Assembly: GCA_028748975.1 (NCBI GenBank)
Contig: JAQTPI010000002.1
Location: 51,213 to 115,212, forward strand
From: Patescibacteria group bacterium
Lineage (GTDB): Bacteria > Patescibacteriota > Patescibacteriia > UBA2196
Length of the DNA stretch: 64,000 nt
Direction: 5' to 3'
Positions 11,608 to 11,664 of this stretch are shown piece by piece. Made by a program: the position numbers and the translations under genes. The notes under the pieces are model-generated. The model was given only the letters and a program-made list of their open reading frames with translations, ran no database searches and was not told the DNA's origin. The stretch's first letter is position 1; each line of letters opens with the position of its first letter.

Positions 11608-11664
11608 TTTACCCGCCGGAGTGTTAAAGGACTTAAGGGAACGAAGGCGGGAAAACTTAATTTT
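11608..11664 (+). repeat. Element C copy (tttaYccgccgGAGT...GAAGGCGGRtaaacttaatttt)
   Basis: Homologous copies at 36716-36780 and 46018-46074. Stem ccgcc/ggcgg conserved with compensatory flanking pairs. Confidence 0.55.

Follow-up and report, generated by a model that had tools for sequence, protein, structure and literature searches.

Element C, a hairpin of ~58 nt with a copy directly upstream of rarA in the 64-kb stretch of DNA analyzed here (i.e., the window), probably belongs to a family of small, dispersed palindromic repeats, not described before, from a Kuenenbacteria-like clade of the Patescibacteria. The family resembles REP/BIME/REPIN repeats, MITEs, and Rickettsia palindromic elements (RPEs). 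On sequence evidence, it behaves like a mobile, or at least proliferating, family whose unit would be an inverted pair of structured hairpins. A role as a start-codon-associated regulatory motif is not supported. The host of the window is a member of the Patescibacteria (CPR), a group of bacteria of very small size, near Kuenenbacteria, and its RarA protein shares ~75% identity with those of Kuenenbacteria.

The core pattern CCGCCGNAGT...GGCGG matched the window exactly three times, always on the + strand (0.01 matches expected from dinucleotide shuffles), and all three copies of the original prediction were recovered at their positions. A covariance model search of the 64 kb identified four copies (Table 1), the additional one being an inverted copy that had previously escaped notice. 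Copies 1, 2, and 3 each fold into the proposed hairpin (z-scores, -2.9 to -4.2). The stem of copy 1 finishes 7 nt upstream of the rarA ATG (position 11665), with AGGAG directly 5' and TTAATTTTATG directly 3' of the stem. The inverted copy lies 51 nt upstream of copy 1 in a head-to-head arrangement, and its 3' foot extends over the stop codon (TAG, 11493-11495) of a Cys-rich ORF (11247-11495). Together with their spacer, these two copies form a module (11493-11660) that occupies the entire stop-to-start intergenic region. On a read-through strand, the arms of both copies are able to pair with each other and form one long hairpin, as the arms of paired copies do in REPINs.

The other two copies have different surroundings. 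Copy 2 is solitary and adjoins no gene; the next long ORF begins at 46524 (i.e., 453 nt downstream). A small hairpin, CTTGCCGATAGGCAAG, sits just upstream of it, and similar small hairpins (CTTGCGAAAGCAAG and CTTGCGATAGCAAG) sit in the module spacers of loci L038 and L037, which suggests that copy 2 may be the right half of a decayed module. Copy 3 begins 11 nt past the stop codon of a PorG-PorA fusion gene (34857-36698), and ~15 extra nt form an additional apical hairpin within it. Thus, the claim that two of the copies stand directly before an ATG or a gene holds for copy 1 and fails for the other two. The long ORF that follows copy 2 (46524-47978) encodes an Eco57I-like N6 DNA methylase, possibly part of a restriction-modification system. 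The window also contains GC-rich short hairpins with the same CCGCC/GGCGG stem, similar flanks, and ~4 nt between the arms (42629-42662, 17651-17683, 4778-4811, and 20568-20601). Judging from their sequences, these may have arisen from element C by collapse, or they may be terminator-like hairpins with no relation to it.

Table 1. Positions of the element C copies and associated features (window coordinates unless a locus is named)
Feature	Position	Strand	Detail
Copy 1 of element C	11603-11660	+	covariance model, 69.9 bits
Copy 1, 5' arm	11606-11617	+	AGTTT-A-CCCGCC
Copy 1, first internal loop	11618-11620	+	GGA
Copy 1, inner helix	11621-11622 with 11641-11642	+	GT with AC
Copy 1, apical region	11623-11640	+	GTTAAAGGACTTAAGGGA
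Copy 1, second internal loop	11643-11645	+	GAA
Copy 1, 3' arm	11646-11657	+	GGCGGG-A-AAACT
Inverted fourth copy	11493-11551	-	covariance model, 55.7 bits
AT-rich spacer between inverted copy and copy 1	11552-11602		
Copy 2, solo	46012-46070	+	covariance model, 66.6 bits
Small hairpin just upstream of copy 2	45992-46007	+	CTTGCCGATAGGCAAG
Copy 3	36710-36783	+	covariance model, 55.7 bits
Other repeats in the PorG-PorA gene	~35183-35261, 35340-35375, 35505-35545, 36124-36169, 36434-36512		
97% identical C modules flanking secE	L039:12658-12800 and 12978-13119		
Other palindromic module	L040:12392-12557 and 13104-13442		ATGTCATCCTGAGCGAC ... CTCAAGATGAC

Related copies were collected from public scans (i.e., 4 loci from one scan of GTDB species representatives and 30 loci from one scan of metagenomes). 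An alignment and a covariance model were built from 39 copies, and the model was then searched against all loci and the window. The public scans and the model yielded 51 distinct strong copies from 28 sources, all in related genomes. Read 5' to 3', the consensus begins with a 5-bp outer stem, an often-mismatched position, and a core stem (Y-CCGCC/GGCGG-R), giving a total stem of 11 to 12 bp. It continues with a symmetric 3x3 internal loop (G-N-A opposite G-N-A), a 2-bp inner helix (G-C plus Y-R), and an apical sequence of ~20 nt that includes a UAAAGGR-type motif and, in some copies such as copy 3, a further hairpin.

This fold is real, as judged from the compensatory changes observed in 9 of the 13 pairs (52 cells; 51-copy set). 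None of 500 shuffles reached the observed level of covariation, and pairing was 91% with the true partners compared with 39 to 50% with slid partners. Divergent copies alter the core itself, from CCGCC/GGCGG to TCGCC/GGCGA, CCACC/GGTGG, or CTGCC/GGCGG, and the inner helix occurs as two subtypes (GU/AC and GC/GC). The larger set therefore bears out the covariation that the original prediction had proposed from three copies. Among those three, one compensated pair stands (C-G in copy 1; T-A in copies 2 and 3), while the neighboring position (A opposite A, G, or T) forms no consistent pair. Because the inner pairs contain 18 cells of the G-U type and only 2 unpaired cells (both C opposite A, checked in 47 copies), the alignment points to the CCGCCGNAG strand as the one that would fold.

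Close pairs of copies are arranged head-to-head, with their 5' ends facing the spacer, in all 18 listed pairs; the spacers range from 15 to 150 nt, and the modules are from about 130 nt upward in length. Relative to genes, the contacts are made by the 3' foot. An ATG lies 3 to 8 nt past the 3' foot in 14 cases, and in ~13 cases a stop codon on the other strand lies 0 to 9 nt from the foot or overlaps it, these copies being antisense to the gene. The 5' side of the element rarely abuts a gene. Locus L038 has a module that directly adjoins a bacterial RNase P RNA gene (145 bits) at the 3' end of the latter (L038:2382-2526 and 2523-2950). The flanking genes are functionally unrelated (i.e., rarA, rplK, nusG, secE, genes for membrane proteins, and others). 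For approximately half of the copies, there is no start codon downstream, the orientation is inverted, or the location is within a gene. Orientation relative to genes was one of the points on which a start-codon-linked motif had been proposed to depend, and the further copies occur in both orientations. As a general rule, the linkage to start codons breaks down, given that some copies directly follow stop codons, others adjoin the RNase P RNA gene at its 3' end, and still others are read in frame within conserved ORFs.

Comparisons with relatives indicate turnover at individual sites. A metagenome contig encoding a 92% identical RarA shares the synteny of tRNA, Cys-rich ORF, and rarA with the window. 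Element C is missing from its rarA leader, where unrelated repeats are found. The element was likewise not found upstream of rarA in L001 to L004 or in the Kuenenbacteria loci. The 14-kb locus L039 carries four copies, while the syntenic loci L040 and L041 carry none. Within the gyrB-secE-nusG-rplK region, C modules occupy the nusG-rplK spacer in L020 and the secE-nusG spacer in L039. A different palindromic module (ATGTCATCCTGAGCGAC ... CTCAAGATGAC) is found in the nusG-rplK spacer of L039 to L041 and in the secE-nusG spacer of L040. The site before secE is filled with a C module in L039 and is empty in L040. In L039, the module that precedes secE and the one that precedes nusG share 97% identity over ~140 nt; their flanks are unrelated, and the similarity stops at the module ends. 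We also observed that whole intergenic regions were swapped between repeat families in the same gene order. The two hairpins of one module are often of different subtypes (~60 to 75% alike), and the unpaired nucleotides are conserved between genomes whose housekeeping genes are only 65 to 70% identical in DNA. Three motif matches (L005 to L007) came from a metagenome-assembled genome titled "uncultured Gammaproteobacteria bacterium" (GenBank CAZFWC01). Its GyrB is nearest to Patescibacteria/Kuenenbacteria proteins (up to 88% identity); on this similarity, the label appears to be wrong and the genome to belong to the Patescibacteria near Kuenenbacteria.

Translation, Pfam searches, and alignments revealed in-frame copies within peptidyl-tRNA hydrolase (Pth), SecA, SMC, MurG, an ELP3-like radical-SAM protein, and the PorG-PorA linker. 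Pth contains two insertions and SecA a whole module. The best frame is free of stop codons in 49 to 55% of the copies, compared with 32% of shuffles; since this enrichment is weak, we do not claim selection for open frames as a property of the family. The PorG-PorA linker varies among the orthologs of the window gene, with one C copy in the close relative L027, an inverted copy plus a short copy in L015, no copy in L008, and a different repeat in the window. Relative to its orthologs, the window gene contains, in frame, GTCATTCC...-type hairpin repeats, a AATCAGAAAT repeat, and a ACATTAAAACATGAAAGCATTAAAGC repeat (Table 1), so that the protein gains peptide segments (e.g., VIPRSGATRNLV, IIGNQKLEIGNQG, and TLKHESIKTLKQ). 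ORF 23499-26225 also contains two of the repeat families (24013-24058 and 25705-25783).

The last ~20 codons of the PorG-PorA gene are duplicated around copy 3 (36640-36698 and 36786-36850). Of the two, it is the unused downstream remnant (QKILKYDGRPFWSDEIIKVISNK*) whose DNA sequence is nearer to that of the close relative L027. Within the 12 codons common to both 3' ends, all differences are synonymous, and both junctions of the duplication follow AAAC. From these similarities, copy 3 seems to have arrived together with a foreign 3' end of the PorG-PorA gene. We considered and rejected the idea that copies 2 and 3 are att sites of a 9-kb island; the genes between them (i.e., those for PPDK and DUF5674, and porB) are syntenic with L027, and no integrase was found among the ORFs scanned.

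A dispersed palindromic repeat would account for most of these features. Its usual unit is two head-to-head copies around a spacer, with the 3' feet as the outer ends; whole modules have been duplicated within a genome and vary in presence between orthologous sites. The outer ends abut functional sequence of whatever kind flanks them (i.e., a start codon, a stop codon, the end of an RNA gene, or in-frame coding sequence). The 3' feet would abut genes because the module tends to fill the whole space between functional sequences. We infer that the conserved unpaired nucleotides (i.e., the GNA/GNA loop and the UAAAGGR apical motif) may form a recognition surface for an enzyme supplied in trans. 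This putative enzyme would copy the module either in the form of a single-stranded hairpin or by way of the inverted ends, and copies would persist where the harm is small. A hairpin 7 to 8 nt before an ATG would be tolerated because most genes have AT-rich leaders that lack a Shine-Dalgarno sequence. Copy 1 is most likely an incidental hairpin of the rarA 5' leader rather than a dedicated control element, and it may have a side effect on rarA mRNA stability or initiation.

Several observations sit awkwardly with this reading. No transposase or RAYT-like gene was detected among the 20 window ORFs scanned for domains, and the outer ends of 18 modules showed no consistent direct repeat that would mark a target-site duplication. 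Modules often combine two hairpin subtypes, the conservation of unpaired nucleotides between distant genomes fits a host-selected function equally well, and only about half of the copies are stop-free in their best frame. Moreover, the sequence between the two inverted copies in Pth and in the ELP3-like gene is genuinely coding, so that a pair need not be a single inserted unit and the head-to-head arrangement is accounted for only in part. Apart from the open frames, these points keep a host function alive as a reading of the data. Two motif scans of viral contigs returned no matches and hence gave no sign of a phage vector.

Comparison with known repeats supports the general assignment and sets element C apart from each described type. 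The REP/BIME/REPIN repeats of proteobacteria, in which REP hairpins are mobilized by RAYT transposases, are also short, imperfect, multicopy palindromes with a defined folding strand. They lie at the ends of genes, both inside operons and between them, and are paired in inverted orientation across a short linker; their conserved unpaired bases are presumed to be protein recognition sites. In contrast, element C is longer (~58 nt), has two helices and a conserved apical region, also occurs inside ORFs, and belongs to another host phylum. It has no GTAG-type tetranucleotide at the stem foot; the 5' flank of the hairpin is (G)GAG or AAAG, and G[T/G/A]AG is found in the internal loop only. The missing stem-foot GTAG, together with the lack of a RAYT gene among the scanned ORFs, keeps element C from being assigned to the RAYT-type REPs.

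RPEs are single long hairpins of 105 to 146 bp (Ogata et al. 2000, as reviewed in PMC2229807). As with element C, these palindromes lie between genes and in frame within conserved protein genes, where they add a peptide segment (PMC2229807). They have also been reported inside tmRNA and RNase P RNA genes (PMC2229807), whereas the element C module abuts the RNase P RNA gene. Given its different phylum and architecture (i.e., a 58-nt hairpin that is usually paired head-to-head), element C is unlikely to be a member of the RPEs. Bacterial MITEs (Correia/NEMIS, ERIC, and RUP) share with element C modules a noncoding unit, mostly of about 130 to 180 nt, with inverted ends (PMC2229807, PMC10969869). 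Both groups also include near-identical copies in the same genome, show filled/empty polymorphism, co-locate with gene starts, and have ORFs able to fuse to host ORFs (PMC2229807, PMC10969869). Element C differs in that its inverted ends are structured hairpins, often of two subtypes, and in that no TA ends or target-site duplication were detected at the 18 module ends, the latter excluding a classical MITE. We know of no parent IS of element C. Integron attC sites (5'-RYYYAAC ... GTTRRRY-3') have a single orientation in cassette arrays and were likewise rejected, since the ends here are 5'-GTTTAY ... RTAAAC-3' and the inverted pairs flank housekeeping genes in conserved synteny. Our literature search found no description of such repeats in the Patescibacteria (CPR).

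The strongest competitor, which we regard as unlikely though worth keeping in sight, is a gene-boundary element maintained by the host. Here, the C strand (as RNA or single-stranded DNA) would be bound by a conserved protein that recognizes the GNA/GNA loop, and the element would mark or insulate the ends of transcription units. By analogy with functions proposed for BIMEs, and at a similarly low probability, it might act as a 5'-terminal stabilizing hairpin for the downstream mRNA and, where the upstream gene ends, as a site of processing or a barrier. Strong conservation of the unpaired nucleotides across genomes that differ at the family level, 3' feet flush with gene ends (including that of an RNA gene), the strict head-to-head rule, and the modules before secE, nusG, and rplK are all consistent with such a role. 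However, the gene-end copies are antisense to the preceding gene and would not form the same RNA on its transcript. Close relatives have no element, or an unrelated repeat, at the same sites, and copies also occur inside ORFs. A sigma-70 promoter scan of two modules detected no promoter-like sites in their spacers.

A bolder reading, in which we place rather little confidence, treats the hairpin as a one-strand signal for a conserved Patescibacteria protein, with the 3' foot setting the exact end of the segment that is copied or processed. This would represent either a new single-strand (HUH-like or rolling-circle-like) mobilization whose ends are structured or a punctuation of gene boundaries, specific to the clade, by which genes could be fused, split, or patched. 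It would explain why every 3' foot is directed toward a gene end, why pairs are always head-to-head, and why copy 3 is accompanied by foreign last 20 porA codons and AAAC junctions.

Very improbable, in our judgment, is a cis-regulatory leader RNA (i.e., a riboswitch, protein-binding leader, or thermosensor) controlling the translation of rarA and other downstream genes. Such an RNA could act by occlusion before the start codon or by bringing the upstream AGGAG near the ATG, and the covarying hairpins that end just before an ATG, together with the AGGAG and TTAATTTTATG flanks of copy 1, are what it would predict. However, the genes downstream show no relationship to one another, roughly half of the copies occupy positions that a leader would not, the rarA leaders of close relatives lack the element, and another repeat precedes rplK in L039 to L041. 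The GAG of AGGAG is paired within the outer stem, and the genome mostly does without Shine-Dalgarno sequences. Rfam families gave no match to any copy in the window and 13 loci at the gathering threshold, and a permissive scan of positions 11400 to 11800 returned chance matches alone (E above 3). Two specific versions were considered separately. A split ribosome-binding site, in which the hairpin juxtaposes AGGAG and the ATG, was rejected on the basis of the paired GAG, the retention of the GGAG flank by gene-end copies, and the lack of Shine-Dalgarno sequences at most genes. Mimicry of Shine-Dalgarno or anti-Shine-Dalgarno sequences by GGCGG/CCGCC was set aside because GGCGG lies 10 to 19 nt from the ATG (copies read by eye), which we judged to be too far.

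A transcription terminator or attenuator between genes has scarcely any probability either: the stem is stable and GC rich, one variant (L031:99-157) is followed by a T-run, and a T-rich spacer starts a few nucleotides after the inverted copy in several modules, but a U-tract is absent after all four copies in the window, terminator scans were negative there and at the hairpins of two modules, L039 and L040 each have a canonical terminator, distinct from the hairpin, ahead of the module, and conserved loops and in-frame copies are unexpected for terminators.

The relevance of a dispersed repeat of this kind lies mainly in CPR genome biology and annotation. Patescibacteria have been described as having small, streamlined genomes. 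The genome of this lineage is only about 79% coding, and several palindromic repeat families have colonized its intergenic regions and the loops of essential proteins. Insertion of palindromes in frame into conserved genes was reportedly first described in Rickettsia, and its occurrence in an unrelated reduced-genome lineage suggests that it is a recurrent outcome of genome reduction. A family supported by covariation can be used to follow genome dynamics and to type strains of CPR bacteria that have not been cultivated, and it offers a handle for finding the putative mobilizing enzyme. It also calls for caution in annotation, since such hairpins resemble leader RNAs, and their translated segments inflate protein alignments and give false N-terminal extensions.

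Two further features of gene leaders in the window were observed. Tandem 8-mers of the type ATGYTTTA run up to start codons at 4944-5001, 17780-17839, and 19140-19205, and 8-mers of this type also precede rarA in the relatives L001 and L002. Four small ORFs on the minus strand without Pfam matches (38651-38998, 42020-42382, 44773-45183, and 45443-45874) have strong AAGGAGG ribosome-binding sites, unlike their neighbors, and the ~108-nt upstream regions of two of them are 90% identical (38973-39080 and 42357-42464).
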